Both the position numbers and the translations under genes were made by a program. 58,542 nt of DNA from an uncultured Lentisphaeraceae bacterium (GTDB taxonomy: Bacteria; Verrucomicrobiota; Kiritimatiellia; RFP12; UBA1067): positions 1 through 58,542 of the forward strand of contig CAYMLQ010000002.1 of the NCBI GenBank assembly GCA_964390795.1, written 5' to 3'. A model generated the notes under the pieces. The model was not told where the DNA came from, did not search any database, and saw only the letters and a list, made by a program, of their open reading frames with translations. This document shows positions 1 through 20,977 of the stretch, piece after piece; positions within the stretch are counted from its first letter, which is position 1; every line of letters starts with the position of its first letter.

Positions 1-2
1 TG

Positions 3-404
3 ATGGAGTCCAAGCAGGTGGACACGGTCAGCAAGGTTCCGCTGCTGGGCGACATTCCTTATTTGGGGCGGCTGTTCAGCTACAAAGGCACGGAAAGGAG
101 GCAGGCGCATCTGGTGCTGCTGATCCGTCCGACGGTGCTGGATGAAGACAAGCCGAATACGGGCTTTGAAGATCCCTCCCTGAAGATTGCGGAGCCGATG
201 CTGCAGGGGGTCGGAAAGACGCTTGCGCCGAACAAGGGCGAGGATCCGCTTGTCGCCAAAGAGAGGTCCCTGCTGGAAAGAATGGGCTGGCGGAAGAAGG
301 CAGAGGCGACGGAGCCGGCCGAAGCGGTTGCCGAGCCGTCGTCCGAAGCGCCTGTCACGCCGGTCAACCACGGATCGACCGAGGCCGAAGCCGCCGGGAA
401 GTGA
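3..404 (+). CDS. Secretin (GspD/PilQ family), C-terminal end only; the 5' part lies outside the window
   Basis: The frame is open to the window edge. VSKVPLLGDIPYLGRLFSYKGTERRQAHLVLLIRPTVL is the conserved C-terminal secretin-domain signature. It is followed by an Ala/Glu/Pro-rich tail. Confidence 0.75.
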   Translation: MESKQVDTVSKVPLLGDIPYLGRLFSYKGTERRQAHLVLLIRPTVLDEDKPNTGFEDPSLKIAEPMLQGVGKTLAPNKGEDPLVAKERSLLERMGWRKKAEATEPAEAVAEPSSEAPVTPVNHGSTEAEAAGK

Positions 405-493
405 GAAAAGTGAAACTTTTTTGCCCACGAATGGCGCGAATAGACGCGAATGGATCGATGTATTGATTCGTGAAATTCGCATGATTCGCGGGC

Positions 494-549
494 CAGAACC
501 CTGAACGCTGAACCCAGAACCCTGACCCCTGAACGCTGAACCCTGAAAG
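494..549. repeat. Tandem heptanucleotide tract, 8 units
   Basis: Read directly: cagaacc ctgaacg ctgaacc cagaacc ctgaccc ctgaacg ctgaacc ctgaaag. Confidence 0.9.
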
Positions 550-559
550 AGTGGAGGAA

Positions 560-717
560 CTACGAAACACGCAAAAAACGCGAAATGAATGCCTTGCGGA
601 AAAAGGATTGCCTGCGACCAAACAACCACACCGGTTGGGTTTGAATCGAGTGAGATGGCAACGGATCTCCAAAACATGGGTCATAGATCATTTTCGCGCA
701 TTTCGCGTGTTTCGTAG
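560..717. repeat. 158-bp element copy A with terminal inverted repeats (MITE-like or structured RNA)
   Basis: ctacgaaacacgc (560-572) is the exact reverse complement of gcgtgtttcgtag (705-717). The arms extend imperfectly (cgcgaaatga / tcattttcgcg). Confidence 0.7.
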
Positions 718-818
718 TGACGTAAGCTGCGCACCCGTTTGTAGTGAGCCCGTGAGGGCGTTCTTGTTCGATTTTTCGCCGGCAGCCGACTTTTCCAGCG
801 CAAGCTGTTGTAGGATTA

Positions 819-907
819 TGAACGCAGAACCCCTGAACCCTGACCCCTGACCCCTGAACCCCTGACCCCTGAACCCCTGACCCCTGAACCCCTGAACCCT
901 GAAAGAG
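819..907. repeat. Tandem 7/8-nt tract (TGACCCC / TGAACCCC units) ending in CCTGAAAGAG
   Basis: Read directly: tgaaccc tgacccc tgacccc tgaacccc tgacccc tgaacccc tgacccc tgaacccc tgaaccc tgaaagag. It has the same terminus as tract 494-549. Confidence 0.9.
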
Positions 908-915
908 CGGTGAAA

Positions 916-1073
916 CTACGAAACACGCTAAAAACGCGAAATGAATGCCTTGCGGATCAAGGGTTGCCAGAGACCAAAAAACCTCACCTGTTGGATTTGA
1001 GTCAAGTGAGAGGGTAACGGACTCGCAGCACATTGATCAAAAATCATTTTCGCGCATTTCGCGTGTTTCGTAG
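916..1073. repeat. 158-bp element copy B, exactly 356 bp downstream of copy A
   Basis: It has the same 13-bp termini (916-928 and 1061-1073) and the same length as copy A. About 24 mismatches to copy A by hand count. Confidence 0.7.
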
Positions 1074-1105
1074 TGATATAAATTGCCGGATTTAGGCTGA
1101 GACAA

Positions 1106-1621
1106 ATGCTGCAAACAACGAAAAGCGAACGCACGATCCGAACCGCCGGTTTCACGCTGGTGGAACTGATGGTGTCGCTGTTGATTGTCGGCATCGTGAT
1201 GATGGGCTGGTGGCGGATCATGAACGCAACCAGCCCTTATCGCGAGGCGCAGCGCCGCGCGGCGGTGGAGGTTGCGGCGGGGGTGCTGGACATTCTGTCG
1301 GATCCTCTGTTTTCCGAGGACGATGCCAGCCTGTGGGTTTATCAATTGGTAGAGCCAGTCACGTCCGGGAGGGTGACAAAGTACTCGATGGATAAAAGCC
1401 AGAAAATCCCTTTCCCAGCCGGGTGGCTGCCACACGGCACTCTTATGAGGTACACTCTGACCGTGGAAGGGGGCGTCACACCTTCAGTGAATGCGTGGCA
1501 GAGGTGGTCAAGTGGGGGAGTTCCCGTGAGTTGCGTATGGTCGACTATCAGGCTCTATGACAGGGATGAAACAACAAATCACTTTGCCGTGTTCACACAG
1601 TTACTTCAGGTTATACAATAA
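1106..1621 (+). CDS. Prepilin-type N-terminal cleavage/methylation domain protein (pseudopilin)
   Basis: ATG start. The N-terminus RTAGFTLVELMVSLLIVGIVMM carries the class III signal (G/FTLxE plus a hydrophobic helix). Confidence 0.8.
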   Translation: MLQTTKSERTIRTAGFTLVELMVSLLIVGIVMMGWWRIMNATSPYREAQRRAAVEVAAGVLDILSDPLFSEDDASLWVYQLVEPVTSGRVTKYSMDKSQKIPFPAGWLPHGTLMRYTLTVEGGVTPSVNAWQRWSSGGVPVSCVWSTIRLYDRDETTNHFAVFTQLLQVIQ

Positions 1622-1631
1622 GGAATTACCG

Positions 1632-2312
1632 ATGAAGTACGGCAGGTCAGACAGAGCCGCCAAGCGGTTGGTTCCGGACAATGCCCCTACTCCTTCAGCT
1701 GTTGATAGGGGAACGTCAGGTTATACACTGATCGAGCTTCTGGTTGTTGCGGTGATTATTGTTGTGGCGGTCGTGAGTGTGGGAACCGGTTTCGCCCGAA
1801 TCTCTTCGCTGGAAGAGAGTAACCGCGAAAAAGCAAGGGTGCTCGAGGCGCTATGCGTTCGTGCTGCGGTCATGCAGCCCCGTGTGGCAATCGGTGCGGC
1901 GGTTACGACGTTGACTGCGGATTCGGAAGTCAAAATCCGGTATCCTAAAATTATCTTTGGCGTGGCGTTCGAGACGAATCAGTTTCTGCAAGTGACGAAC
2001 TACGTGATGCGCATACGCGATGCGACCGGGACGCTGGAAGGACAGGTCTACAGCGCCAAAGAAACGAACCAGCGGCGCGAGCAGGCCTCTTACGGGTGGG
2101 CGGACACGCTGTTTATCCGCCAGTCCCGACAATCTCAAATGATCGGAAACAGTATGATGCCCATCACTGATTGGGCCGACCCGAGGGTCACCAACGGGTT
2201 GTTGGTTCGGTATTCAGCCGATGTGCCGATGATGAGCAACCGTGTTCAAATTATCGATGAGGTCAGTCTCACGGTGCCGGTCAGGTTACGGAACGGCAAC
2301 GGGGTTTATTGA
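1632..2312 (+). CDS. Prepilin-type N-terminal cleavage/methylation domain protein (pseudopilin)
   Basis: The internal ATG at 1632 is preceded by aagga. GTSGYTLIELLVVAVIIVVAVV is a class III signal. The track ORF begins earlier at 1557. Confidence 0.75.
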   Translation: MKYGRSDRAAKRLVPDNAPTPSAVDRGTSGYTLIELLVVAVIIVVAVVSVGTGFARISSLEESNREKARVLEALCVRAAVMQPRVAIGAAVTTLTADSEVKIRYPKIIFGVAFETNQFLQVTNYVMRIRDATGTLEGQVYSAKETNQRREQASYGWADTLFIRQSRQSQMIGNSMMPITDWADPRVTNGLLVRYSADVPMMSNRVQIIDEVSLTVPVRLRNGNGVY

Positions 2313-2332
2313 ATCGGAACGGGGCTGTTCAA

Positions 2333-3682
2333 ATGAAAAACGGAAAAGAGACGTGTGCGCTGAGGAGTGCGGACTGCCTGATGAGACCGGGCAGAACCAG
2401 CAATGGAGGTTCCCGTGCCGGCGGCATGCTGATTGCGCTGAGTCTTTTCTTTGCCGTAGCCGGTATCTTGTTTGGCCTTGGGCGTCTGAAGGCGCACGAG
2501 TTACAGGTGAAAAGGCGGCTGGAGCGCCAGTACGAGATCGACAAAATATTGGCAACCCGGAGTGCGTTGAACATGATCCGGGCAACGACGGTGGCAGCGG
2601 TGACGGGTGAGGAAGTGAGTGGCTTTACGAACAGTTTCTCGAGCGGGTTAGGACAAGACTTGGAAGTGCGAGTGATTCCTGTTCCGCCACTGCTGCGTGA
2701 AGACATGGAAACAAATGTGAATTGGAGGATAAAAGCGATCCCCCCTACAAGAGTAAAGCTAGGTGAAGACCCTGCCTATCCAGCATCAACATCGAGGGAC
2801 AGGGTCGTTAGATTTTCATGTCTTACCGGTTCGGTTGAGCGGAGTTGTGCCATTTTCGAAAAGTTGATGTTCAAGAAAGAGAATTCGACGAACGAGGTGC
2901 CTTTAAGTTGGCTAGAAACACCGTTCGGCTTGATTTATCGTTTGGATCCGGGTTCTGCCGCGGCATCAAACGGGTTTTATCGTTTAGGATTCTATCTCGT
3001 CGGGATGGGTGGGTCGCAGGGGCTTTCTTTTGGTGGAGTCCTTACTGCAGGTAACCTCGATAATGCAATGAATGAATGTCCTGCGATCATGCTAGAGACC
3101 ACGGCAACCAGCTTGGGCGGGTACGGGGAAAGCGTTATAAGGAACTTCAAAGTCAGAAACATGCCAAGCGGTAGTTCCGACATCGGGATCGTCAATTGCA
3201 TCAATAATGTCGATTGCAAACTAATACAAGCATCTGGTTTCTTGCTCTCCGGATATAATGCCGTGGCGTTCGCCGAGACCTCGCTGGGCGATATGGTTTT
3301 CTCGGATTCGCTGCCTCCTTTGAAGGATTTGGTCGATGACGACGCGTTCACGAATTCGTGGATTGTGATCAAACATACTTTCCCGGCTAACTTCGCTCCT
3401 GGAACCAATGCGACGATGACCATTACGCTTGACTCCTTTGATGTACGGGAACCGAAGACGTTTGCGGTGTCCGTTTTTAACAGGGAAGTCGAGAAAAAAG
3501 TCGAACTGACGGGAACAAATTTTATCCCCGATGTGTCCACCTGGACGTTGATGACCTCGTTCCCTAATGGCATGGGCGGTTTGGGACAATCATGCGTGAT
3601 CGACACGTTTGGTGCAGAGACTACATCGTTGTGGAGTGAGAGAAGAGGGATTGATCCGAGGGAAAAGGACAAGTTGAGATAA
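2333..3682 (+). CDS. Hypothetical membrane-anchored protein in the pseudopilin operon
   Basis: Long ORF in an AT-richer segment with one N-terminal hydrophobic helix (GGMLIALSLFFAVAGILFGLG). No family recognised. First ATG at 2333; the track start at 2309 is TTG. Confidence 0.6.
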   Translation: MKNGKETCALRSADCLMRPGRTSNGGSRAGGMLIALSLFFAVAGILFGLGRLKAHELQVKRRLERQYEIDKILATRSALNMIRATTVAAVTGEEVSGFTNSFSSGLGQDLEVRVIPVPPLLREDMETNVNWRIKAIPPTRVKLGEDPAYPASTSRDRVVRFSCLTGSVERSCAIFEKLMFKKENSTNEVPLSWLETPFGLIYRLDPGSAAASNGFYRLGFYLVGMGGSQGLSFGGVLTAGNLDNAMNECPAIMLETTATSLGGYGESVIRNFKVRNMPSGSSDIGIVNCINNVDCKLIQASGFLLSGYNAVAFAETSLGDMVFSDSLPPLKDLVDDDAFTNSWIVIKHTFPANFAPGTNATMTITLDSFDVREPKTFAVSVFNREVEKKVELTGTNFIPDVSTWTLMTSFPNGMGGLGQSCVIDTFGAETTSLWSERRGIDPREKDKLR

Positions 3683-6600
3683 TGAGAACATCTACCGGGA
3701 TTCTTTTCGGATTGATTTACATGGCCGGTGTGTCGGCCCACGCTGTTCCTGCACCTTCAGCGGTATCGGCATCTTTAGGAACGAGTACGCAATGTGTCAT
3801 TGTGCAATGGGGCAGTGTGTCCAATGCGGTTGCATATCAGGTTCAAAGGGGTACGAGTTTAGATGTTTATGGAGAATTGATATACAATTGGCGCTCCGGG
3901 TGGGTGCACACACTGGAGCAGGAGGATGTAAGCGCAGGTTCTGGTGTTGTGTCGTATTATCAGGTGAGAGCCTCCGAAAGCCCCTTGGGCACAGCGGCAA
4001 GCGCTTGGAGTTCGCCTCTTGTTCGCGGGTTCCGCGCACTACCTCTGGACATGGTCATGCCGGGATCGCCTTTGCGGTTCACCCCGGGCGGTGATGCCGC
4101 ATGGGTGGGGCAGTATCCTCCTGGAGATCTGGATGATGCGTTTGTCAACCTACCGGTGACGTCCGACCAATCGACGTGGTTGTCGCTTGAGGTGTATGGT
4201 CCGGGAACGCTGACCTTTCAATGGCGGACAGACTGTGATTTCTGGGATGATTTTACCTGTAAAGTAAATGGAAACGACACTTTCGATCCTATCTTCGGAG
4301 TGACCGCTTGGGAACCGCGCACGTTGATGCTGTATGATGAAACAAACATAGTCCGTTGGGTTTACAACAATACGCCTTGGGGTAATGATGGGTTGGGGTG
4401 GGTGTGGGTAAAGGATGTGGTCTGGATGCCGTCGGGCGCCGTCCTTGAGCCTCCGGCACATGTGCAGGCGTCAGATGGTGCGTTCTTTCAAAAGACGCGA
4501 ATCACATGGGATGCAGTGCCAAGCGCAACGCATTATGAGGTGTCGAGGGCGGACTCAGCGAACGGTGTTAAAGAGATAGTGGTGTCTTGGGCTGCGGGAC
4601 TGACAGCCGATGATACGGGAGGCACCGCAGGGGCGAGCTATTACTATTTTGTTCGTGCGGCGATCAATGCTTCAGGAGAAAAAGCCAGTAATTACAGTCT
4701 GCCTGACATCGGGTTTGCGGGACGGCGACCGGGCAATGACTATATTAGAGACGTTGCGGCGCTGGCCGGTTCTGACGTCGGCGTGACGCAAGGTGACTGT
4801 ACCTGGGCGTCGGTGCAATCGGGCGAGCCTTTGCATGCCGGGTTTGCGGATGCGACGAATTCGGTGTGGTGGAACTGGACGGCCACGGCGAACACGTCGG
4901 TCACGTTTAAGGTGCAAGGGAGCGTGACCAATTATCAGGCGGTGCTGGCGGTCTACACGAATGCGGGCAGCGTGGTCGGAACGCTGGTGCCGATCACGAG
5001 CGGGTGGCAGGATACAAACGAGTGGGCCGGCGTGACCTTCGACGCGGTGGCGGGCGCGACGTATTTCTTTGCCGTGGCGGGCCGCGACGGGGTGGGCAGC
5101 CCCGTGACCCTGCGCTGGGCCGTGGAGGGCTGGCAGTGCCCCGCGCCAGCGAACGTTCAGGCGACCGACGGCACCCTGATCGGGACGGTTCGGGTGACGT
5201 GGGACGCGGTGGCCGACGCGGAGGCGTATGAGGTCAGCCGTGCAGCGACCCTCGGAGCGGGAACAAGCGAGGGGATGCCTGGAACGCCGACCTCCGACCT
5301 CCGATCTCCGACCTCCGACTTCCGACCTCCGACCTCTGAAGTCCTCGGCAAGCTTGTGGTGTCGCCGTGGTGTACGTCCGTCACCTTTGATGACACCGCC
5401 GTAAGCGACGGCTCCACCAACTATTACACGGTCCGGGCTGCGTTCGACACGACCGGCTGGGCCGCGAGTGCCGACAGTCTGCCGGATACTGGGTATGCCC
5501 AGCCGCGTCCGGCGAACGACCGGCTCGCGAACGCGCAGGTGCTTGACGCGCGATACGGCGGCTCGCTGCCGGGCGATTGTCTGTGGGCCACGTTCGAGCC
5601 AGACGAGCCGCTGCATGGCGGGGTTGAGGGCGCGACCAATTCGGTGTGGTGGAACTGGACGGCGCCGACGAACGCTTCGGTGTTTTTCGAGACGCAGGGG
5701 AGCGATACGAACGTCATGCCGGTGTTGGCCGTGTATACCAACGCGGGCAGCGCGGCAGGCACGCTGGTCGCGATCACGAACGGGGTTTCCGGAACGAACG
5801 GCTGGGCGAGCGCGACCTTTGACGCCGTGGCGGGTGCGACGTATCTGATCGCGGTGGCGGGTGCAGACGGGGCGGGCGGGCCGCTGACGCTGCGCTGGGC
5901 CGTCGCGGGCTGGCTCTGTCCGGCCCCGGTGAATGTGCGGGCGTCCGACGGCGCGCTGTACGAGACGGTGCGGGTGACGTGGGACGCCGTGCCTGACGCG
6001 ACGCATTACGAGGTCTGGCGCGCGGCGAGCCTCAGGCCGGGCAGCCTGAAGACGCGGGTCTCGCCGTGGGTGCCGGCGACCTTCTTTGACGACACGACCG
6101 GTAACCGCGGCGTGACCTATTACTACTTCGTGCGGGCCGCGACCGACGCGGCAGGCTGGCTGGCGGGACCGTACGGTCTGTCCGACGCGGGCTCTTCGGG
6201 TCTGCGTCCGTCGAACGACAACCAAGTCTCGGCTGCGGTGCTCGCGGGCGAGGCGGGCGTCGCGGCCGGTAACAACGCGCTGGCGTCGTTTGAGCCCGGC
6301 GAGCCGGAGCATGGCGGCTTTGCCGATGCGGCGAACTCGGTGTGGTGGCGCTGGGTGGCGCCGAGCAACGCGGTCTTCGTCTTTACCACCGAGGGGAGCG
6401 GCACGAACTTTAATCCGGTGCTGGCGGTGTATACCAATGCGGCTGGCGGACTGGCGCCCGTGGCCGCTGCGGAGCAGGGGGCGAACGCGTACGCCCAGGT
6501 CGGCTTTGTGGCGAAGGCGGGCGTCACATACCTGATCGCGGTGGCCGGACGGCAGGCGCTGGGCGGTGCCGTTGTGCTGAACTGGGAGCTGACGCTGCCC

Positions 6601-9740: not shown

Positions 9741-9748
9741 CTCCGCCC

Positions 9749-10576: not shown

Positions 10577-10644
10577 GTTTGGAGAATAACAAAATCGCGA
10601 GGTTGGTCAAACGAAAATCGGTATACGCGATAAGGAGGCTCAAA

Positions 10645-11970
10645 ATGGGAAATGAAACAGGATCTAAACCGGGGGCAGAGGGTGTGGCGTCGGAAGCGTG
10701 GCAGCCGCCGTGGGCGCGAGCCCAGGCCCAGGCCCCGGCCGCTGAGCCGGTGGCAGCCGAGAGCGTGGTGCAGCAGCCGCTGACGGCCGCGGATCTTTTC
10801 CGCGAAACGAAGCCGTCGCAGGAGCAGGCGGGTGCCGCGGATACGTTTGAGGTGCGGGATGCGGGCGGTGCGCACGGGCTGCACCTGCATGCGCTGCTCA
10901 AGCAAAGCATCCAGGCCAAGGCGTCGGATATCATGATCGCGCCGGGGCGCAGGCCCAGCGTGCGGGTTGACGGCGACATGACGCCGATGGCCGACTTTCC
11001 TGTGCTGACGTCCGCTGACGCCGACACGATCTTGCGGGCGATCCTGAAGGAAAGCCAGTTGCGCACGCTGGATTCGGAGTGGGAGCTGGACTGCGCGTAC
11101 GAGCTGGACGGATATCGTTTCCGCGTGAACGTCCACAAACAGTTGCGAGGGCTGGCGGCGGTGTTCCGTCTGCTGGGCGAAAAGATCCTGACGCCGGAGC
11201 AGATCGGGCTCAGCGATCCGATCATCCGGCTGACGGATCTCGAGCAGGGGCTGGTGCTGGTCACCGGGCCGACGGGCAGCGGCAAGACCACCACGCTGGC
11301 GACCATGATTGACAAGATCAACCGGGAGTGCGCGTATCATATTCTGACCATTGAAGACCCTGTCGAAATCGTGCATGAGGAAAAGTACAAATGCGTGATC
11401 ACCCACCGTGAGCTGGGCGCGCACACCAAGAGCTTCAACAACGCCTTGCGCTCGGCCTTGCGCGAGGCGCCGGACGTGATCCTCGTGGGCGAAATGCGCG
11501 ACTTGGAGACGATCGGTCTGGCGCTGACGGCGGCGGAGACGGGGCACTTGGTGTTCGCGACCCTGCACACGCGCAGCGCGGCGGAGACGATCAACCGCGT
11601 GATCGATGTGTTCCCTTCGGCGCAGCAGCCGATGGTGCGGTCGCAGTTGGCCAGCTCGCTCAAGGCCGTGGTCAGCCAGAAACTGCTGAAGAGGCTGCCG
11701 AAAGGGCGTGTGGCGGCGCGCGAGGTGATGCTCGGGACGAGCGCGATCGCCAACCAGATCCGCACGAGCAAGACGCACGAGATCTACTCGTCGATCCAGT
11801 CCGGCTTCGAGCTCGGGATGCTCACGCTGGAGCAGTCGCTGGCGCAGCTCGTTCTGGACGGGGTGGCCGATCACGGTGAGGCGTTCGACTGCGCGAACGA
11901 CAAAGAGGTCTTCGAGAGCTATGTGACGAGTCTGGGCGCGAAGCGCAAAGAAGCCGCGAAAAGGAAATGA
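10645..11970 (+). CDS. pilT: PilT/PilU-family pilus retraction ATPase with an N-terminal extension of about 95 aa
   Basis: taaggagg lies 7 nt upstream of the ATG at 10645. Motifs: Walker A GPTGSGKTT, Asp box TIEDPVE, Walker B DVILVGEMRD, His box TGHLVFATLHT. Confidence 0.9.
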   Translation: MGNETGSKPGAEGVASEAWQPPWARAQAQAPAAEPVAAESVVQQPLTAADLFRETKPSQEQAGAADTFEVRDAGGAHGLHLHALLKQSIQAKASDIMIAPGRRPSVRVDGDMTPMADFPVLTSADADTILRAILKESQLRTLDSEWELDCAYELDGYRFRVNVHKQLRGLAAVFRLLGEKILTPEQIGLSDPIIRLTDLEQGLVLVTGPTGSGKTTTLATMIDKINRECAYHILTIEDPVEIVHEEKYKCVITHRELGAHTKSFNNALRSALREAPDVILVGEMRDLETIGLALTAAETGHLVFATLHTRSAAETINRVIDVFPSAQQPMVRSQLASSLKAVVSQKLLKRLPKGRVAAREVMLGTSAIANQIRTSKTHEIYSSIQSGFELGMLTLEQSLAQLVLDGVADHGEAFDCANDKEVFESYVTSLGAKRKEAAKRK

Positions 11971-11982
11971 GGATGAGACGCC

Positions 11983-13092
11983 ATGCATGAGATCGACCCA
12001 TTGCTGAAAGAAATGGAAGCGGCAGGGGCTTCGGACCTGCACATCAAGACGGGGCGCCCTCCCGCCCTGCGCGTGGACGGCGTGATGCGCGTGATGGAGA
12101 CCGCGCCCGTGTCGTATGAGGAGGTGGAGCGGATGGTCAAGACCGTGCTTCCTCCGCGCCTTCAGGAGCAATACCTGCGCGACCACGAGGCGGACGCGTC
12201 GTATCTGCCCAAGGGCGGGCGGGACCGGTTCCGCGTGAACGCGTTTTTCCAGCGGAACGCGCCGGGGCTTGTTTTCCGCCGCATCCCGCGCGACATTCCG
12301 ACCCTGGACGGGCTGAACCATCCGCAGGTTCTCAAGAAGCTGTGCGGCCTGGAAAAGGGGCTGGTGATCGTGACGGGCCCGACGGGCTCCGGCAAGTCCA
12401 CGACGCTGGCCGCCATGGTGCGGTACATCAACGAGCGCGAGCCGCTGCACATCATCACCATCGAAGACCCCATGGAGTTCGAGCACGAGGACATCAACTG
12501 CGTCATCGAGCAGCGCGAGGTCGGGCTTGACACCTTTTCGTTTACCGAGGCCCTGCGGCGGGCGCTCCGTCAGGATCCCGACGTGATCCTGCTGGGCGAG
12601 ATGCGTGACGCGGAAACCATGATGATCGCGACCTCGGCCGCCGAGACGGGGCATTTGGTGTTCTCGACGCTGCACACCAACGACGCCAAGCAGAGCGTGT
12701 CGCGCATCATCAACACGTTTCCGCCTGAACAGCACTTCCAGACGCGGCTCAAGCTGGCGGCTGCGCTACAGGCGGTGATTAGCCAGACCCTGCTTCCGAA
12801 GAAGAACGGCGGGCGCGTGGCGGTGCTGGAGATCATGATCACGACGCCGTTCGTACGCGACCTGATCGCCAAGGGCCGCTATGAGGACTTGGACGAGGCG
12901 ATCGAGCAGGGCACGCATTACGGGATGCAGTCGATGAACCAGGACATCCTGACGAAGTGGATGGGCGACGTCATCACCGACGAGGACGCGCTGGCCTCGA
13001 GCGTGCGCCCGCAGGACTTGCAGGTGATGATGGAGCAGTTCCGGCTGAAGAAGGCGCAGTGGCTCGCGGGACAGAAGAAGACGGTGAAATAG
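11983..13092 (+). CDS. pilT: PilT-family pilus retraction ATPase (second paralog)
   Basis: Motifs: GPTGSGKST, TIEDPMEF, DVILLGEMRD, TGHLVFSTLHT. The length is typical for PilT. Confidence 0.9.
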   Translation: MHEIDPLLKEMEAAGASDLHIKTGRPPALRVDGVMRVMETAPVSYEEVERMVKTVLPPRLQEQYLRDHEADASYLPKGGRDRFRVNAFFQRNAPGLVFRRIPRDIPTLDGLNHPQVLKKLCGLEKGLVIVTGPTGSGKSTTLAAMVRYINEREPLHIITIEDPMEFEHEDINCVIEQREVGLDTFSFTEALRRALRQDPDVILLGEMRDAETMMIATSAAETGHLVFSTLHTNDAKQSVSRIINTFPPEQHFQTRLKLAAALQAVISQTLLPKKNGGRVAVLEIMITTPFVRDLIAKGRYEDLDEAIEQGTHYGMQSMNQDILTKWMGDVITDEDALASSVRPQDLQVMMEQFRLKKAQWLAGQKKTVK

Positions 13093-13123
13093 GGTTGGGC
13101 AGACTTGGCCTGCCCAACCCTAT
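13089..13123 (+). terminator. Stem-loop overlapping the pilT2 stop codon
   Basis: atagggttgggcag (13089-13102) pairs perfectly with ctgcccaaccctat (13110-13123) around a 7-nt loop. There is no clear U-tract. Confidence 0.55.
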
Positions 13124-13242
13124 ACATAACCTCGACCTACGCACGACGGGTATGTGTTGCCTTGCTGATGTAGAGATTTATCTACAAGGCAGGCTCTGGG
13201 CAGGGCCGCGAGAAACGGGTATGCTTGAGGTGGTTTTGGGCA

Positions 13243-16200
13243 ATGGGTTCTAACGGACGAGTGACGAGGAGTACAAAAGGGATGAGCGCAACGGCTATTC
13301 GGTTGGCGATGTGGAGCGGATGTCTTGCGGCAAGGAGGCTGAGCGCTCTCGGCTTGGTTGTTCTCACGCTTGGTTTTGCAGCGATGCCTCTCGATCAGGC
13401 CGGTGCCGTGCCGGCCTGCCCAGGAGGTGCCGACGTCATGCAACCGAGCGGGAAAACCATCCAAATCCATCTGCGCGGCGACGAGCTTCTGCATTGGACA
13501 GAGGACTCGGCAGGCTACACGATCCTTCTTGATGCGGCATCGAAAACCTGGGTGTACGCCACCCTCGATGCGGCAGGCCAACTGACCGCGAGTGCTGCTG
13601 TTGTGGGTGAGCAGGATCCAGCCGCACTGGCTTTGCCCAAGCGGCTTCTGCCGGAAACCGCGATCCGAGAGGCGCAAGCGGCTGCGGCCAGTCGCGCACA
13701 AACAGCCGAAGACGACGGCGGGCCGCAGCGTGCGGCGACGACGGGGACGATGAAGAATCTGGTTTTGTTGGTGGGCTTCTCTGATCTGCCGTTCACCCGG
13801 ACGAAGGCTGAATACGAAGCGCTGTTCAACACGATCGGCTACACGGCCGACGGGGCGCAAGGATCCGTGAAGGATTTCTACAAAGAGATCTCCTATAATC
13901 AATTGAACGTGGACTCGGTTGTTGTGGAACCCGTCACGCTGGCCAACGGATACGCGTATTATGGCGGGGATGGCGGGACAGGGCTGCGTCCCCGCGAGAT
14001 GGTGCAGGAAGCCCTTGCGGCAGTTGAGGCTCGCGGCTTTAATTTTTCGACGGTGGACAGCGACGGCGACGGGTGGGTTGACGGGCTGACGGTGATCCAT
14101 GCCGGCGGAGGGGCAGAGTACGGCGGTAACGACTATAACTACATCTGGTCGCACAAGTGGTCGATGGTCAGTACCGTGACGTACGACGGCAAGAGCATGC
14201 GGATGTACCACACGGAGCCTGAGCGGCGCGGGTGGGACAGTTCGCCAAGCTCATGGGGGATCACGCGGATTGGCGTCATCTGCCACGAGAACGGCCACTT
14301 CCTCGGGCTCCCCGACCTCTACGATTACGGATCAGACAGTTCCGGCGTCGGCGATTTCTGCCTGATGGCCAGTGGGTCGTGGAACGGCAACTCCGGTACG
14401 CAGCCGGCGCAGCCGAGCGCCTGGTGCAAGATGATGCTCGCGTGGCTGACACCCACCGAGGTGACGGCATCGGGCACGTATCCGGTGCCGCGGGTCGAGG
14501 ACAACCAGACCGTCTATCGACTTCGCGGGGCGTTCCCCTCGACTCAGTATTTCTTGATCGAGAACCGTCAGGGCTTCGGCTTTGACGCCAGCCTGCCCGG
14601 AAGCACGCGCGGGCTGCTCATCTGGCATGTCGACGAGACCATTTATAACAACAACGACCAGACGCACTACAGGGTCGATCTTGAAGAGGCCGGCGGCACG
14701 CAGGATCTTGAGTTGAATGCGAACAGTGGCAACGACGCGGACTACTTCCGGGCCGGCACACTGACGACCTTCAATTCCGGGACGACGCCGAACAACCGCA
14801 GTTACGCGGGCGTTGCGTTGGGCCAGGAGATCACAGCCGTTTCCGCAGCGTCGGCAACGATGTCCTTCACGGTGTCCCAAGGGATTGAGCAGTCCACGCT
14901 GCAGTTCAGTTCGGCAACCTATTCGGTGGCTGAGGTGGGCGTCAGTGTACGTGTCTACGTCAGCCGCACAGGCGGTTCAGTCGGCGCGGCCAGCGTGAGC
15001 TATGCGACGGCGAACGGGACGGCCACGGCTGGGTCAGGTTTGGACTACACGGCCAAGTCGGGCACGCTGAGCTGGGCCGACGGGAATGCGGACGACAAGT
15101 GGATCGACATCCTGATCAACAACGATACGGCGGCGGAAATCGCCGAGTTCTTCACGGTCACGTTAAGCAATCCCAGCGGCGCGCTCTTGGGGACGCCCGG
15201 CGCGACCACGGTGACCATCGAAGGCCCAAATGATCAGCCCCTTGCGCCCGCCAATGACAATTTCGCCAACGCCGTGTCGCTGTCGGGCAATAGCGGGACG
15301 GTGGTCAGCAATACCAGCAGCGCGACGGTTGAGGCCGGCGAGCCGGCGCATGCGGGGGTTGGCCCCTTCAAGTCCATCTGGTACACCTTCACGCCGCTCT
15401 CCAACGGGACGTTCACCGTGAACACGCATGGCAGCGCCTTCGATACGGTCCTTGCGCTGTACACCGGCTCGGCTGTGGGCAGCCTGACTCCCATCGCCTG
15501 GAATGACGGGGACGGCTGGCCAAACAATAATAGCGGACTGACGGGCATCGCGCTGACTGGCGGAATCCCCTGCCGGATTGCCCTTGCCGGATATGACAGC
15601 TCAGAGTCCGGCGCGACGGTGTTGAACTGGGAATTCACGCCGAGCAGCGCGTTTCCCGCGCCCACGGGTGTCGGCGCGACCGACGGGACGTGGGTGGATC
15701 GTGTGCGGGCGACTTGGTCTGCGGTGGCGGGTGCCAGCAACTACAAGGTTTACCGCAACACCAGCGCCAGCACCACGGGCGCTGTCTTGCTGAATCCGGC
15801 TGGCACCACGGATCTGTTTTATGATGACATGACCGCCTTGCAGAGCGTGAACTATTACTACTGGGTGACGGCTGTCAACGCGGAGGGCTTAGCGAGCGGG
15901 TTCAGCCTCCCCGATGCCGGCTACCGGGGGGGCACGGCCCTGCCCGCGCCGGAAGGCGTGGTGGTATCGCGTGGCGTGTATACGAACAGGGTGGTCATTC
16001 AGTGGCAGCCGTTGGCAGGCGCATCGCACTACCGCGTGTTGAGGGCCAACACGCTCGGCGGCGTGACCGAGGTCATCACGGTTTGGGTGACGGGAACCAG
16101 CGGAACCGATTGGGATACCGAGCCAGGCGTTTCCTACTGGTATGCGGTGCAGGCGGCATTGGATGATACGGGAACCGGGGTCGGCCCCTCCAGCGCACAG

Positions 16201-19200
16201 GTTGAGGGGTGGCGCAAACTGTCGCCGCCGGTCGGCGTCTCCGCTTCTGACGGCACCTATTCGGTGAAGATCGCGGTGATGTGGTCGAGTGTCGCGGGGG
16301 CGTCGCGTTACCGCGTTTTCCGCGCCACAACCCCGTCGCAGGCAGACCGGGCAGCGGTGAGCGGATGGATCACCGCGACGAGTTTCAACGACACCGATGC
16401 CGCTCTTGCGCCGGGGGTGACGTACTATTACACCGTTCAGGCCGCAGTGAATTCCTCGGGAGGCCGTCCGAGCGACTGGAGTGCCGCTGCGATCGGCCGG
16501 CTGGGCTATCCTTTGCCCGCACCGCTCGGCGTTGACGCGTGGGACGGTCTGGCCTTGGACAAGGTGAAGATAAGCTGGTCGCCGGTCAGCGGTGCGACGC
16601 ACTACAAAGTGTCGCGGGCCACGACGCTGGGCGGGGCGCTAACGGCCTTGACCAATGGTTGGTTCGCCGGCACCGTCTGTTACGATGTGACCGCCATACC
16701 GGGGAAATCGTACTATTATCAAGTGCAGGCCGCCACGGACGCGGCCGATTCGAGGGCCAGCGCTTACTCGGTCGCGGATGAGGGCTGGCGGTTGCTTTCT
16801 CCGCCCACCGCGGTGGCCGCGTCAGAGAGTTTCACTGACCGGGTGCGCGTGACGTGGACCGCGCCGGCGGGCGCCAGTTACTATCAGGTGTTGCGCGGCC
16901 AAGCTGCAGGCGGTGGCAAGAGCGCCCTCTCAGCGTGGGTTTCCGGGACGAGTTTCGATGATACGAACGTGCTGTCTGGCATCCGCTACTATTATGCCGT
17001 TGTGGCGGCAATTGACGTCAACGGCTTGCGTCCGAGTTCTCAAAGCAGTGAAGATACAGGCTGGCGTGCGCTCTTGGCTCCGGCCGCAGTAACGGCTTCA
17101 GACGGAACGTATCTGGATCGGGTGAGCGTCGATTGGACGCCCGTGGCCGAGGCGGGCTTCTATCGGGTCTTCCGGTCCACGTCTTCAACAGGCACGAAGA
17201 CGGCTCTCGGCATGTGGCAGTCCGAAACCAATTTTGCGGACACGGCGGCCACGCCAGGCGTCACCTACTACTATTGGGTGCAGTCCGCCGTCGATGTTTC
17301 CGGCACGGGATCAGGGTTGTTCAGTCCCTATAATGATGGCTGGCGGTCTTTGTCAGGGACTTTCGTCACGGCCTCAGATGACACGTTCTCAGACAAGGTC
17401 TATGTGACGTGGCCGAGCCTGGAGGGGGCAACGTACTACCGCGTTTATCGGGCCCTGCAGCCGGAGGGCGAATGGCTGGCTTTGGGGAGTTGGCAGAGCG
17501 CAACGAATTATTCGGATACGGCGGCGCAGCCGGGAACCAGTTATTGGTATACCGTGCAGGGGGCGACGTCGAGCAGCGGCGCGAGGCCCGGGCCGCAGGG
17601 GCTCCCGGACGCAGGCAGGCGCGCCCTGGCGCCGCCCGCCAACTTGGTCGCCACAGACGGCACCTTTAGAGACCGCGTCGCTCTCTCCTGGGCAGCCTCC
17701 GTCAATGCGACGTACTACCGGCTCAGCCGCGGCACGGTTGCCGGCGGACCGAAGGATGTGCTCACGGGGTGGCTGTCCGTTACGAACTTCAACGACTTCG
17801 CCGCGGTGCCGGGCGTCACGTTCTATTACTCCGTTCAGTCGGCGCTGGACGAGGAGGGGCTCCAGCCCAGTGCTTGGAGTGCCGAGAATGACGGCTGGCG
17901 GGCGCTCTTCGCGCCGACACCGGTTGAGGCGTCGGACGACCTGCGCTCCGACGGCGTGATGGTCGCGTGGGGCGTCACGGCGGGGGCCAGCCACTACCGC
18001 GTCTACCGCATGACCACATCGAACGCGGTCACCCGTACGGCGCTCAGCGGGTGGATCGCGGAAACCAATTATCTGGACACCACGGCTACTGCGGGAGTGA
18101 TCTATTATTATTCAGTGCAGGCCGCCACGTCGGTCGCCGGTTTGCGTGCGAGCGCTTACAGCGTCGAGGACACGGGGAGGCGCGCTCTGGCCGCGCCGGT
18201 TAACATTGCCGCAACCGACGGCACGCTCTCCGACAAAGTGAGGATCACCTGGAGCGCCGCTGCCGGAGCGACACGTTACCGGGTCTTGCGCGGCGACGTC
18301 TCGACCTCCTTTGCGATGGCGCCGCTAAGCGCCTGGCTCACGACCGTGACCTATGATGACGCGACCGCCACGCCCGGAACCAATTACCTCTACACCGTTC
18401 AGGCCTCTACGGATGACAGCGGCAGCATCGTCAGCCCGAACGGGACAAGCGATGAGGGCTGGCGCGGCTTGCCGGCCCCGACGTGGATTGCGGCGAGCGA
18501 TGGCGACGCTCCGCTGCGCGTGAGCTGGAGCACCGTGCGCGGCGCGTCCCACTACCGGCTCTACCGCAACACCAGCACTTCGACCGCAACGCGGCAACCT
18601 CTCGGAGTCTGGCAGACCGGCACAACCTATGTGGATACGGAGGTGACGCCGGGCCTGACCTACTATTACTGGGTCGTGGCCGCCATTGATAGTGAGGGTG
18701 CGCGCCAGGGAACGTTCAGCGCCGTCAATGACGGCTGGCAGCGCCTCTGCCCGCCCGATGGGTTAAACGCGACCGACGGGACGTTTGCCGACAAGGTCAG
18801 GCTGACGTGGGCGGCAGCGGCAGGCGCTAGCTACTACAAGGTCTACCGCGCGTCAGACGGTGGCGTCGCATATGAGGTCAGCGGCTGGTTGAACACGACA
18901 AACTATGACGATAGCGCAGCCGAGCCGGGCGTGGTCTACGATTACTATGTCCAGTCTGCCGTCAGCAGCAGCGGCGGCCGTGCGAGCCTTCTCTTTAACT
19001 CGGAGACCGGCTGGCGCGCGTTTACGGCTCCGGCCGATATCCAGGCCACGGACGGCACCCGGACGGACACCGTGCGCATCGAGTGGGCAGGTGTGGCGGG
19101 GGCCGGCTCTTACCGCGTCTGGCGAGGCTCGACCGTCGGCGGAGCCAAGACGCCCTTGAGCGGATGGCTGTCCGAAGCCTGGTTCGAGGACGCCACGGCG

Positions 19201-19971
19201 CTGCCGGGGGTCTCCTACTTCTATGCCGTGCAAGCCGCTGCGGACAACGCGGGCACTCGGGCGACAACGCCCGATACGGCTGAGGAAGGGTGGCGCGGGC
19301 TCGCCGCTGTCGCTTGGATTTCTGCCACCGACGGCGTACACACCAACAAAGTGCGCGTCGAATGGGGTGCGGCCGCTGGCGCAACCCACTACCGAGTCTA
19401 TCGCGCCACGGCCTCTGGGGGAACCCGTCTGGCCGTGTCGGGATGGCAGGCCGCCACGGGGTTTGATGATCTCTCGGCGGTGTCGGGAACGTATTACTTC
19501 TACACCGTGGTCGCCGCGGCCGATGATTCCGGAGCCCATACGGGTCTGCTCGGGGCGGAGGATCTCGGCTGGCGGCTCAGGAGCGTTGAGACGACCTCCG
19601 GCTTCCAAGAGTGGGCGCTGGCGCGCGGGCTCGGAACGGATCTGGAGGCGGTCTTTGTCGGCGACATGGATGCGGATGGCGTTCCCAACGGGCTGGCGTA
19701 TGCGTTGGGCGCGAATTGGACGAGCGGCCAGCCTCTTCTGCGGATTGTCGTCGTGAACGGCGAACCGGCTGTCGAGGTCGTGAGCCAGGACACGGCGACG
19801 GTGGACGACGTGACGGTGTGGGTGGAAACGACATCGTCGCTGGCCGCTCCGCAGTGGAACACGGATGTGACGCAGACGGACTTCGATCCGGTGGCGTGCC
19901 GCGAGCAGTGGCGCACCACCCTGCCGGCCCCGGCCGCGTTCTTCCGCCTGCGCGCGACGCTGAATCCATAG
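13243..19971 (+). CDS. Giant secreted M6-family (InhA-like) metalloprotease with Calx-beta, a PPC-like module, about 14 tandem FN3-like repeats and a C-terminal AAFFR module
   Basis: Zinc site HENGHFLGLPDLYD. Calx-beta-like YSVAEVGVSVRVYVSRTGG...ASVSYATANGTATAGSGLDYTAKSGTLSWADGN. PPC-like GEPAHAG...SIWYTFTP...GSAFDTVLALYTG. Repeats follow (A/S)(T/S)DGT..D.V...W....GA..Y.V.R. The start is uncertain (TTG 13225, ATG 13243 or ATG 13282). Confidence 0.9.
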   Translation: MGSNGRVTRSTKGMSATAIRLAMWSGCLAARRLSALGLVVLTLGFAAMPLDQAGAVPACPGGADVMQPSGKTIQIHLRGDELLHWTEDSAGYTILLDAASKTWVYATLDAAGQLTASAAVVGEQDPAALALPKRLLPETAIREAQAAAASRAQTAEDDGGPQRAATTGTMKNLVLLVGFSDLPFTRTKAEYEALFNTIGYTADGAQGSVKDFYKEISYNQLNVDSVVVEPVTLANGYAYYGGDGGTGLRPREMVQEALAAVEARGFNFSTVDSDGDGWVDGLTVIHAGGGAEYGGNDYNYIWSHKWSMVSTVTYDGKSMRMYHTEPERRGWDSSPSSWGITRIGVICHENGHFLGLPDLYDYGSDSSGVGDFCLMASGSWNGNSGTQPAQPSAWCKMMLAWLTPTEVTASGTYPVPRVEDNQTVYRLRGAFPSTQYFLIENRQGFGFDASLPGSTRGLLIWHVDETIYNNNDQTHYRVDLEEAGGTQDLELNANSGNDADYFRAGTLTTFNSGTTPNNRSYAGVALGQEITAVSAASATMSFTVSQGIEQSTLQFSSATYSVAEVGVSVRVYVSRTGGSVGAASVSYATANGTATAGSGLDYTAKSGTLSWADGNADDKWIDILINNDTAAEIAEFFTVTLSNPSGALLGTPGATTVTIEGPNDQPLAPANDNFANAVSLSGNSGTVVSNTSSATVEAGEPAHAGVGPFKSIWYTFTPLSNGTFTVNTHGSAFDTVLALYTGSAVGSLTPIAWNDGDGWPNNNSGLTGIALTGGIPCRIALAGYDSSESGATVLNWEFTPSSAFPAPTGVGATDGTWVDRVRATWSAVAGASNYKVYRNTSASTTGAVLLNPAGTTDLFYDDMTALQSVNYYYWVTAVNAEGLASGFSLPDAGYRGGTALPAPEGVVVSRGVYTNRVVIQWQPLAGASHYRVLRANTLGGVTEVITVWVTGTSGTDWDTEPGVSYWYAVQAALDDTGTGVGPSSAQVEGWRKLSPPVGVSASDGTYSVKIAVMWSSVAGASRYRVFRATTPSQADRAAVSGWITATSFNDTDAALAPGVTYYYTVQAAVNSSGGRPSDWSAAAIGRLGYPLPAPLGVDAWDGLALDKVKISWSPVSGATHYKVSRATTLGGALTALTNGWFAGTVCYDVTAIPGKSYYYQVQAATDAADSRASAYSVADEGWRLLSPPTAVAASESFTDRVRVTWTAPAGASYYQVLRGQAAGGGKSALSAWVSGTSFDDTNVLSGIRYYYAVVAAIDVNGLRPSSQSSEDTGWRALLAPAAVTASDGTYLDRVSVDWTPVAEAGFYRVFRSTSSTGTKTALGMWQSETNFADTAATPGVTYYYWVQSAVDVSGTGSGLFSPYNDGWRSLSGTFVTASDDTFSDKVYVTWPSLEGATYYRVYRALQPEGEWLALGSWQSATNYSDTAAQPGTSYWYTVQGATSSSGARPGPQGLPDAGRRALAPPANLVATDGTFRDRVALSWAASVNATYYRLSRGTVAGGPKDVLTGWLSVTNFNDFAAVPGVTFYYSVQSALDEEGLQPSAWSAENDGWRALFAPTPVEASDDLRSDGVMVAWGVTAGASHYRVYRMTTSNAVTRTALSGWIAETNYLDTTATAGVIYYYSVQAATSVAGLRASAYSVEDTGRRALAAPVNIAATDGTLSDKVRITWSAAAGATRYRVLRGDVSTSFAMAPLSAWLTTVTYDDATATPGTNYLYTVQASTDDSGSIVSPNGTSDEGWRGLPAPTWIAASDGDAPLRVSWSTVRGASHYRLYRNTSTSTATRQPLGVWQTGTTYVDTEVTPGLTYYYWVVAAIDSEGARQGTFSAVNDGWQRLCPPDGLNATDGTFADKVRLTWAAAAGASYYKVYRASDGGVAYEVSGWLNTTNYDDSAAEPGVVYDYYVQSAVSSSGGRASLLFNSETGWRAFTAPADIQATDGTRTDTVRIEWAGVAGAGSYRVWRGSTVGGAKTPLSGWLSEAWFEDATALPGVSYFYAVQAAADNAGTRATTPDTAEEGWRGLAAVAWISATDGVHTNKVRVEWGAAAGATHYRVYRATASGGTRLAVSGWQAATGFDDLSAVSGTYYFYTVVAAADDSGAHTGLLGAEDLGWRLRSVETTSGFQEWALARGLGTDLEAVFVGDMDADGVPNGLAYALGANWTSGQPLLRIVVVNGEPAVEVVSQDTATVDDVTVWVETTSSLAAPQWNTDVTQTDFDPVACREQWRTTLPAPAAFFRLRATLNP

Positions 19972-19978
19972 TGCTTTT

Positions 19979-20977
19979 ATGAACGATATGTCGAATGCGC
20001 CGACACAGGCGGACGAGCTGGCCGAGTCGATCAGGAAGGTGGGCCGGGGACCGGGCACGCATCTGGAGACCTGGGTCTCCATCGGGCTGGCGTTCACGCT
20101 GACGGTCGTGGGGTGCGTGATCTTCTGGCGCACCCAGGCGGTCCTGAAGGAGGCGGGTACGGAACTCGGCCCCGTCGCCACCTCCCGGCTGCAGACGTTG
20201 CTGGAGGGGGCGCTGCTGCCTTTTCTGGCCCTGTCGGCGGGCAGTTTCCTGATTCTCGTGGTCACGGTGCTGGCCATGCGGTGGACGCGCCTGCGCCTGG
20301 AGCGCGAGCAGCGGCAGGCGCAGGTGTCCGACCTGGTGATGCGGCTGGTGGGGCAGTATCAGGACGAGCACCTGTGCCGGATCAGCTCGTGGCTGCATGA
20401 CGGAATCGGCCATGGCTTGGTCTTGCAGAAGATGGACGTCGAGTATATGATGCAGAAAAAGCAGGTGAGCCAGGCTGACGGGCTCAGGGTGATCGAGCAA
20501 CTGAAAGGGCTGATCGACGAGACGCGCAATATGGCCAGCATGATCTATCCGCACACGCTGTTCCAGTTCGGGCTGGCGGCGGGGCTGGCCAATCTGACGG
20601 AGAACTTCAGGCGCATGGCGCACATTCCGATCGAAGAGGAGATCGGGGCGCTGGACGGCTGCTGTTCCGATGAGGTCGCGATGCTGGTTTTCCGGATTGT
20701 GCAGGAGGCGCTGACGAACGTGGCGAAACACGCGCAGGCCGCCCACGTGTGGGTCAGGGTCGCCTGTGACGCCGACGGTTTGAGCGGAAGCGTCAGCAAT
20801 GACGGGCTGGTTCCTGAGAGCGGCGAGCACAGGCGTAAAGGGATCGGGCTGATGGTCATCTCCGAGCGCGCCAAGCGGCTGGGCGGGCAGGTGACCGTGG
20901 AGAGTTGTGAAGGGGAACCGTACCGGCTGCTGTTCGCCTTCCCGCATCGGGGGGGCGGGTGTCAGGCGCCGGCATGA
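19979..20977 (+). CDS. Membrane sensor histidine kinase, NarL-partner class (HisKA_3 + HATPase_c)
   Basis: Two hydrophobic segments. H-box LHDGIGHGLV, N-box EALTNVAKHA, and GIGLMVISERAKRLGG. It starts 8 nt after the giant gene stop. Confidence 0.85.
   Translation: MNDMSNAPTQADELAESIRKVGRGPGTHLETWVSIGLAFTLTVVGCVIFWRTQAVLKEAGTELGPVATSRLQTLLEGALLPFLALSAGSFLILVVTVLAMRWTRLRLEREQRQAQVSDLVMRLVGQYQDEHLCRISSWLHDGIGHGLVLQKMDVEYMMQKKQVSQADGLRVIEQLKGLIDETRNMASMIYPHTLFQFGLAAGLANLTENFRRMAHIPIEEEIGALDGCCSDEVAMLVFRIVQEALTNVAKHAQAAHVWVRVACDADGLSGSVSNDGLVPESGEHRRKGIGLMVISERAKRLGGQVTVESCEGEPYRLLFAFPHRGGGCQAPA

Follow-up and report, generated by a model that had tools for sequence, protein, structure and literature searches.

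In type IVa pili, minor pilins together with PilY1 prime assembly of the filament (PMC7541494), and PilC/PilY1 was reported to be held at the pilus tip through its last 12 residues, which add a β-strand to the top minor pilin PilK (bioRxiv 10.64898/2026.09.18.752573, preprint). TcpF of TCP, the toxin-coregulated pilus of Vibrio cholerae, and CofJ of the CFA/III pilus of enterotoxigenic Escherichia coli (ETEC) are encoded in the pilus operon and are exported by binding the tip minor pilin (PMC10120004, PMC9565799, PMC6048534). Recognition of non-pilin cargo by type IV filaments and by machines resembling a type II secretion system (T2SS) is still poorly understood, and the signals known are the N-terminal peptide of TcpF/CofJ and the 12-residue plug of PilC/PilY1. 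Here we describe a compact type IV pilus/secretin gene cluster, with genes for giant surface proteins and proteases inserted, at positions 3-20977 of a 58,542-nt stretch of DNA from an uncultured Lentisphaeraceae bacterium (contig CAYMLQ010000002.1; the whole stretch is hereafter called the window). The bacterium belongs to Kiritimatiellia, and its LeuA is 75-91% identical to those of metagenome-assembled genomes labelled Kiritimatiellia, Kiritimatiellae, 'Lentisphaeraceae' or 'Verrucomicrobia bacterium'. Type IV filament loci in which non-pilin cargo is embedded are a previously known kind; this arrangement of a minimal locus is undescribed, and literature searches found no account of such a locus in Kiritimatiellota. 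The reading we favour, to which we give a probability of roughly 45%, is that of a split type IVa-pilus-like locus in which giants bearing a C-terminal module would be swappable Sec-dependent cargo, docked through that module for display or export.

Conserved core and accessory giant genes

The initial annotation of this DNA had listed a secretin, two pseudopilins, a membrane-anchored protein, a first giant protein (giant1), two PilT ATPases, a giant M6 protease (giant2) and a kinase, and this gene content was borne out. It had also noted that the stop codon of the membrane-anchored protein (ORF457, 449 aa, 2333-3682, plus strand) overlaps the start of giant1 (1972 aa, 3682-9600, plus strand), and the TAA stop and the ATG at 3682 were indeed found to be shared in the sequence TAATG. 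What had been missed in the layout was a gene on the minus strand between giant1 and pilT (9749-10576), which encodes a conserved 275-aa membrane protein and splits the cluster into two transcription units. Because this gene and a hairpin after pilU separate the units from one another, the cluster is not one operon.

Pseudopilin, pseudopilin, ORF457 and giant FN3/PPC protein followed one another in this order in 6/6 recovered contexts, and in four of the six the start of the giant overlapped or abutted the stop of ORF457; the giant1 orthologues of the relatives, 1134-2035 aa in length, stood at the same position. The closest relative, whose ORF457 is 79% identical, had the core genes from the secretin through two pseudopilins to ORF457, then a giant of 2035 aa, the gene on the minus strand, pilT, pilU and the kinase. 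A more distant metagenome-assembled genome (MAG), mislabelled 'Akkermansia sp.' (L014), with a PilU 85% identical, encoded a giant1 orthologue of 1258 aa and, between pilT and pilU, a 940-aa Inhibitor_I69/Peptidase_C10 protein (hereafter the C10 peptidase) that contains two units each of PPC and FN3 as well as a genuine copy of the C-terminal module. In another locus (L017), the giant1 orthologue was 1134 aa long, with the module at its end. Two distant loci, one labelled Victivallales (L102) and one Bacteroides sp. (L103), retained the secretin, genes resembling pseudopilin 1, pseudopilin 2 and ORF457, pilT, pilU, a HisKA_3 kinase and a LuxR-type regulator. The ORF457-like gene was separated from pilT by a membrane-type open reading frame (ORF) in L103 and by a 95-nt gap only in L102.

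Judged from these gene orders, the conserved core is a compact set of the secretin, three pseudopilins (ORF457 being counted as the third), PilT, PilU and a two-component system, and the core favoured for the present locus also counts the small membrane protein between the ORF457 side and PilT. Giant1 was missing from L102 and L103 and giant2 from the closest relative; the giants are accessory inserts and not part of the core. Three insertion points of such accessory genes were recognised, namely giant1 behind ORF457, the C10 peptidase between pilT and pilU, and giant2 behind pilU. Separately, L017 was seen to carry an extra gene between the secretin and pseudopilin 1 (L017:4761-7751), encoding a 996-aa secreted protein with a weak He_PIG Ig-like match only; this is a fourth site at which a locus of this type has taken up a large protein.

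Directly upstream of the secretin, all relatives had the gene of a giant protein that combines variable repeats (DUF11/CLIPPER/choice-of-anchor L, or MBG) with a conserved C-terminal domain of ~190 aa (L014:5626-6375, L017:1505-2254, L102:4927-5676, L103:368-1117). This domain showed 29-32% identity between the most distant loci, with 34 invariant columns and a WDPGE motif, and gave no family match. Its EF-hand-like D.D.DGNF..E loop was present in L014 and L017, which are the closest to the window, and was degraded in L102 and L103. By its conservation, the upstream DUF11/MBG giant, rather than giant1, appears to be the conserved giant partner of the core machine, and in this genome it would lie just past the 5′ end of the window.

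The C-terminal module and the tail of giant2

Giant1 begins with a signal-peptide-like N-terminus of the Sec type, followed by an FN3 unit, an unassigned domain of ~140 aa, six FN3-PPC pairs, a first copy of the module, a further PPC unit and a second copy of the module; no NCBIfam family was matched (0 hits). Giant2 (~2242 aa, 13243-19971, plus strand) is built from a signal peptide, an M6 domain, a Calx-beta domain, one PPC-like unit, 14 FN3-like units and a C-terminal region of ~130 aa. It had been claimed that both giants share FN3-like and PPC-like blocks, and this held true, with eight FN3-like and seven PPC-like units in giant1 and 14 and one, respectively, in giant2, the single PPC-like unit of giant2 matching the giant1-derived hidden Markov model (HMM) with an E of 3.7e-23. 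The M6 domain of giant2 was well supported, scoring 207.8 bits with TIGR03296 (cut-off 110.8) and an E of 1.7e-20 with PF05547, and carried an intact HENGH at residue 354; an alternative ATG at 13282 would yield a cleaner signal peptide. As a side observation on giant1, its second FN3-like unit is interrupted by a Pro/Ser/Thr-rich insert with internal repeats (5278-5349, aa 533-556).

The module is ~80 aa long. The internal copy in giant1 (8665-8898, plus strand) ends in AAFFKVVA and the terminal copy (9358-9597, plus strand) in AAFFKIEARR; the two are 79% identical and match a 7-sequence module HMM with domain E-values of 1.6e-34 and 2e-35. With the copies of the orthologues included, the conserved pattern was P.I..F..V.Y.V..L..W..L.P..L..P..FF. 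An AlphaFold2 (AF2) model of the terminal copy, built from a 5-sequence alignment, reached a pLDDT of 90 and a pTM of 0.77 and was found by DSSP to be a six-strand all-beta structure, so that the module is read, on this prediction, as a β-sandwich of a generic Ig-like kind. No Pfam or NCBIfam model matched it, and the Foldseek comparison with the PDB gave no match better than E 0.03, with no C-terminal domain (CTD) of the type IX secretion system (T9SS) among the matches.

The distribution of the module was narrow. An exhaustive HMMER search with a profile made from the window alone, covering 1.84 billion representatives, returned three true matches, all of them giant1 orthologues or fragments, and a JGI metagenome pattern scan with a reduced module alignment returned one locus, of the same species as L014. 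When all fetched loci were scanned with the module HMM, the module was found only in giant1 orthologues and in the in-cluster C10 peptidase, the three copies in the relatives' loci having domain E-values of 1.5e-32 to 1.5e-30. A word-index protein search with the giant1 module gave no matches, this method being too insensitive for short queries. The 1318-aa secreted protein encoded at 39027-42983 of the window was without the module. The initial annotation had asked whether the module occurs in proteins unlinked to pilus or secretin genes, and no search returned such a protein.

The carriers identified were the giant1 orthologues of four lineages, this genome included, and the C10 peptidase between pilT and pilU. 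The module of the C10 peptidase was 31% identical to that of the adjoining giant1 and 42% identical to that of another lineage, and it is therefore an old, maintained domain and not the product of a recent local duplication. In the closest relative, the giant carried two tandem modules which were mutually only 29% identical.

The initial annotation had counted a module of about 75 aa three times, twice in giant1 and once at the end of giant2. The two giant1 copies stood, as described above; the giant2 copy did not, and the pentapeptide is all that was left of it. The C-terminal region of giant2 (19582-19968, plus strand) contains a DMDADG loop and a beta-rich tail ending in AAFFRLRATLNP. This tail gave no BLASTP alignment with the giant1 modules and scored only 3.8 bits with the 7-sequence HMM, and its shuffle z-scores against the module were 0.2-3.9, while true divergent module pairs gave 15-17. 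Its single-sequence AF2 model (pLDDT 53) was too poor for fold comparison, and the word-index search, insensitive for short queries as it is, found no homologues of it. The pentapeptide AAFF[KR] occurs in giant2 once in 2248 residues, within the last 12 of them, and the composition-based chance of such a placement, calculated post hoc, is ~1e-5; we can only infer a role, if any, for this end. It can be added that C10 and M6 are unrelated protease families, and that members of both have entered this locus type at different points with FN3/PPC blocks and a C-terminal end containing FF[KR].

Pseudopilins, ATPases and flanking features

Both small pseudopilins were recognised by PF07963 and TIGR02532 and have the class III signal (G/FxxxE) of prepilin-type proteins, here with the slash standing between the glycine and the residue after it. 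Pseudopilin 1 (171 aa, 1106-1621, plus strand) has the N-terminus G/FTLVE, and its first 60 aa are near-identical to those of the L017 counterpart. Pseudopilin 2 (226 aa, 1632-2312, plus strand) has G/YTLIE; its ORF opens at 1557, and the start at 1632 was taken from the gene call on an identical Logan contig. Weak GspH-type matches were obtained for these small pseudopilins, and profile comparison with the PDB revealed no relative of either.

ORF457 is a third, large pseudopilin-like protein. Its N-terminus reads R-x-G-G/MLIALSLFFAVAGILFGLGRL and has no Glu5, and in the ORF457 family, for which just 7 clusters were found among 5.8 billion, the N-terminal helix is invariant, the equally invariant start R.GG/MLIALALFFAVIGILFGLGRL being followed by an amphipathic helix. 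No NCBIfam model matched ORF457, and the family profile found nothing in Pfam with E allowed up to 10 and nothing in the PDB. Tip pseudopilins of the GspK type have a prepilin-like N-terminus without Glu5. From this N-terminal pattern, recognised by eye, ORF457 is proposed as a candidate tip subunit of the GspK/PilX/PilK kind.

The PilT retraction ATPase (~441 aa, 10645-11970, plus strand) and the second PilT-family ATPase, a PilU-like paralogue (369 aa, 11983-13092, plus strand), scored 422.6 and 431.1 bits with TIGR01420, both above the cut-off of 319.1, and the GspE models were far below their cut-off for both. The best PDB match of the first was Pseudomonas aeruginosa PilT (337 bits, against 212 bits for PilU), and the second scored 307 bits with PilT and 299 bits with PilU, so that by sequence the two look like an ordinary pilT-pilU pair. 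The start of PilT was chosen by analogy with orthologues of 438-440 aa. It gives the protein a low-complexity N-terminal extension of ~80 aa (10645-10890) with a WQPPWA[RK]A motif, which was also present in the L014 orthologue and is uncommon for PilT.

Upstream of pilT, the 275-aa protein of the minus strand was 49% identical to its L014 counterpart (223 bits) and had a promoter-like site at 10610-10583 on the same strand; no Pfam or NCBIfam family matched it. An ORF of the plus strand over the same region (9737-10438) was also considered as the gene and was rejected, as this frame was less well conserved (33%, 79 bits). Downstream of the ATPases, a GC-rich perfect 11-bp hairpin (GGGTTGGGCAG...CTGCCCAACCC, 13092-13120, plus strand) begins at the last base of the pilU stop; it has no T-run and was hence not listed by the terminator scan, and its position is that of the upstream boundary of the giant2 insert, which is lineage-specific. 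The HisKA_3/HATPase_c sensor kinase (19979-20977, plus strand) forms a conserved end of the core cluster; the same kinase comes after pilU in the closest relative and in the distant loci, and in L102 and L103 the LuxR-type response regulator comes next. It does follow giant2 as had been annotated, with its ATG 7 nt past the giant2 stop and not 8 nt.

At the other end, the window holds the C-terminal 133 codons of the secretin gene (3-404, plus strand; PF00263, E 1.2e-11), which continues past the 5′ end. Full-length secretin orthologues of 768-826 aa scored 172-180 bits with GspD (cut-off 351) and 146-155 bits with PilQ (cut-off 284); both scores are below the curated cut-offs and assign the secretin to neither class. 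The spacer between the secretin and pseudopilin 1 (405-1105) is unusually long, exceeding by ~500 nt that of the relatives, which is ~170-210 nt only. It contains two copies of a ~356-nt element, 84% identical, each with runs of 14-15-nt CTGAACC/CTGACCC repeats followed by an inverted repeat with 27-nt arms that lie 106 nt apart (4 matches of the arms, 0 expected). This element, which looks like a miniature inverted-repeat transposable element (MITE) or a repetitive extragenic palindromic (REP) element, matched nothing in Rfam and had no exact copy among GTDB genomes. Elsewhere in the window, an IS200-like Y1 transposase (49008-50039, plus strand, PF01797) was noted; it is a possible REP-associated tyrosine transposase (RAYT) and may perhaps be related to the elements at 405-1105. 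The GC content was 52-55% in the pseudopilin/ORF457 region (1-4000), 62-71% in the giants and ATPases (4000-24000) and ~65% in the whole window, a contrast that suggests a compositionally mosaic history.

Beyond the cluster, a 978-aa MobA-like nucleotidyltransferase/GHMP-kinase fusion (20959-23895, plus strand) shares 19 nt with the end of the kinase gene and occupies the position held by the LuxR-type response regulator in the distant relatives. Further on, four successive large PAS/GAF/PocR sensor histidine kinases are encoded at 27810-38937 on the minus strand, and beside them, also on the minus strand, lies the gene of the 1318-aa secreted protein mentioned above (39027-42983), which has GLUG, Calx-beta and Flg_new_2 matches.

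Proposed export model, alternatives and comparison with known systems

Under the favoured reading, the three pseudopilins would make up the complex that primes or tips a short retractile filament running through the secretin. Giant1, translationally coupled to ORF457, and the in-cluster proteases would enter the periplasm by Sec and dock on the tip complex through the C-terminal 80-aa β-sandwich ending in AFF[KR]IEA; the docked giants would then be carried through the secretin and displayed or released, and PilT and PilU would reset the filament. A route across the outer membrane would be needed by giant1, giant2 and the C10 peptidase, because they have Sec-type signal peptides and no obvious anchor, and a secretin is encoded alongside. 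The conserved presence of pilT and pilU favours a retractile type IVa-like filament and disfavours a T2SS. Docking of the giants on the machine would parallel what is described for PilY1/PilC or TcpF/CofJ. The initial annotation had suggested that the machinery is dedicated to the giants. Their embedding, the conserved order and the restriction of the module to the cluster agree with that suggestion, whereas their accessory status and a giant2 without a demonstrable module do not; export or targeting of the giants by the machine is a possibility at which the module, confined to this cluster in the data searched, only hints.

Several observations weigh against this reading. PilB/GspE, PilC/GspF, PilD, PilMNOP and an obvious major pilin were absent from the 58.5-kb window, where, in agreement with the initial annotation, no PilB, PilC or PilD-like gene was found among ORFs of at least 200 aa, and they were absent as well within 10 kb of the relatives' clusters. 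The earlier idea that PilB and PilC lie just upstream was not upheld, since the 10 kb upstream of the relatives' secretin encode, besides a giant DUF11 protein, one that resembles an outer-membrane protein, and contain no assembly genes; the PilB, PilC, PilD and PilMNOP genes may be elsewhere in the genome. The giants are evidently not needed for the core machine: L102 and L103 do without giant1, and in the closest relative the kinase follows pilU directly, with no giant2 or M6 protein. The true dedicated partner may perhaps be the upstream giant. Between the units of the locus stand the minus-strand gene and the hairpin. No similarity of ORF457 to GspK, PilX or PilK was detectable, nor was there a T2SSK match, in Pfam and PDB profile scans. 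In the AF2 model, the FFKIEAR segment is the last strand of a folded domain and not a free tail, and by sequence the tail of giant2 is not demonstrably the same domain. Finally, the distribution of the module was obtained with a narrow profile of limited sensitivity on library representatives that are possibly fragments, as in the case of the C10 protein, whose 90% representative is a 243-aa piece.

Some of these points are what would be expected if the pilus locus were a permissive variable region and the giants ordinary Sec-exported surface proteins and proteases that cross the outer membrane or are anchored in some other way, their shared blocks having come from domain shuffling among neighbouring paralogues or from co-regulation by the adjacent kinase. 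Such an explanation, the main rival, which we consider somewhat unlikely, agrees with the accessory nature of the giants and their three different points of insertion, with a cluster split by an opposite-strand gene and a hairpin, and with the GC content of 52-55% in the pseudopilin region against 63-71% in the giants, which suggests a mosaic history. The FN3-like and PPC-like blocks are, moreover, generic extracellular modules by their Pfam matches, and the large surface protein at 39027-42983 shows that proteins of this kind are common in the genome. That same protein, however, lacks the module, which in every search made was confined to proteins of the cluster; the module has also diverged anciently and yet been kept at the extreme C-terminus of different proteins, and the coupling of giant1 to ORF457 is tight and has been conserved, all of which speaks against a merely permissive locus.

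The machine could also work as a T2SS-like piston, with a pseudopilus that pushes the folded giants out for release, the β-sandwich as recognition element, and PilT and PilU merely adjacent with a separate function. The secretin orthologues do score best against GspD (180 bits, against 146 bits for PilQ), the small pseudopilins give weak GspH-type matches, and proteases, typical substrates of a T2SS, are among the cargo. Genes of T2SS substrates are sometimes encoded with the machine, as pulA is with the pul genes. We nevertheless regard this as quite improbable: GspE, GspF, GspC, GspL and GspM are lacking in the locus and in the relatives' loci, the GspD score is far under the curated cut-off of 351, and the linkage of pilT-pilU to the pseudopilin genes, which is not a T2SS feature, is conserved as far as Victivallales-like MAGs. 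It is very improbable, in our view, that the module is instead a sorting or anchoring tag of some other pathway, resembling a T9SS CTD or serving surface attachment, and unrelated to the pilus genes. An 80-residue β-sandwich at the extreme C-terminus of large secreted proteins, proteases among them, is formally like the C-terminal domains of the T9SS. The T9SS-CTD reading was rejected, as no NCBIfam or Pfam model of a known sorting domain matched, those of the Por_Secre_tail/TIGR04183 type included, and the Foldseek search of the PDB returned no such fold and nothing better than E 0.03; besides, giant1 has an internal copy and the protein P0009 tandem copies of the module, and the window showed no gene of a T9SS, for an exosortase or for a sortase.

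Should the pilus-linked docking reading be correct, a folded, transferable C-terminal domain that marks giant proteases and adhesins for a pilus machine would be a third solution to the recognition of cargo. Kiritimatiellia are an uncultured, polysaccharide-degrading lineage of the Planctomycetes-Verrucomicrobia-Chlamydiae (PVC) group, common in guts and digesters, and such a domain would offer a handle on their surface biology and a possible display tag for engineering. A bolder generalisation, unlikely as we judge it at present, would be that Kiritimatiellia, and perhaps the PVC group more widely, possess a compact, cargo-swappable retractile type IV filament for display and secretion, to whose tip a lineage-restricted AFF[KR] β-sandwich tag targets diverse giant enzymes and adhesins, the cargo genes being exchanged by insertion into the locus. 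The tag would in that case be a targeting signal of the domain type at the C-terminus, for a type IV filament, and would differ from the PilC plug as well as from the N-terminal signal of TcpF/CofJ. Even if the mechanistic link fails, the minimal locus of secretin, three pseudopilins, PilT, PilU and two-component system, with a giant of conserved CTD upstream, is worth cataloguing.

Among described gene sets, the Verru_Chthon cassette of Verrucomicrobia (TIGR02596-TIGR02600), in which we take several prepilin-like proteins to be followed by a very large protein, served as a lead only. Membership of this locus in that cassette was rejected, as the one match, a trivial one between the N-terminus of pseudopilin 1 and cassette protein C (TIGR02599), reached 18.6 bits where the cut-off is 256.5, and ORF457 and giant1 gave none. 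The peptidases themselves are of known kinds: giant2 has a full M6 domain as in immune inhibitor A, and the 940-aa protein of the relative combines Inhibitor_I69 with Peptidase_C10 as in streptopain-type C10 enzymes. Unlike those enzymes, each is here fused to a long FN3/PPC array and to the C-terminal end particular to this cluster, and its gene lies within a pilus locus. With the T2SS, the locus has in common a secretin with pseudopilins, folded Sec-dependent hydrolases as cargo, and a secretin that scores best, if below the cut-off, against GspD; it differs in the absence of GspE, F, C, L and M nearby, in an ORF457 without a T2SSK match, and in the PilT/PilU pair conserved in the locus.

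The PilY1/PilC systems (fimU-pilVWXY1 of Pseudomonas, PilHIJK-PilC of Neisseria and the Myxococcus sets) resemble it in several respects, with the gene of a very large Sec-exported non-pilin protein directly behind minor-pilin-like genes, a variable body joined to a conserved C-terminal end, PilT-type ATPases, and a secretin as the outer-membrane route. In contrast to those systems, no β-propeller (PF05567/IPR008707) was present in giant1, giant2 or the Pfam lists of the orthologues; the pseudopilin-like genes number three here and not four, with an ORF457 that has no detectable similarity to PilX/PilK; the conserved strand belongs to a folded 80-aa sandwich, whereas that of PilC is a disordered 12-residue plug; and distant relatives keep the core locus without the giant, with proteases occurring as alternative carriers of the module. 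TcpF and CofJ, like the giants, are soluble cargo encoded in the pilus locus, and what was described for them, export through the pilus secretin once a terminal recognition element has bound the tip minor pilin, is what we propose here. They belong, however, to type IVb systems and are small cargo with an N-terminal peptide signal, whereas the present locus has PilT and PilU of the type IVa kind and a candidate C-terminal signal on proteins of 940-2240 aa.

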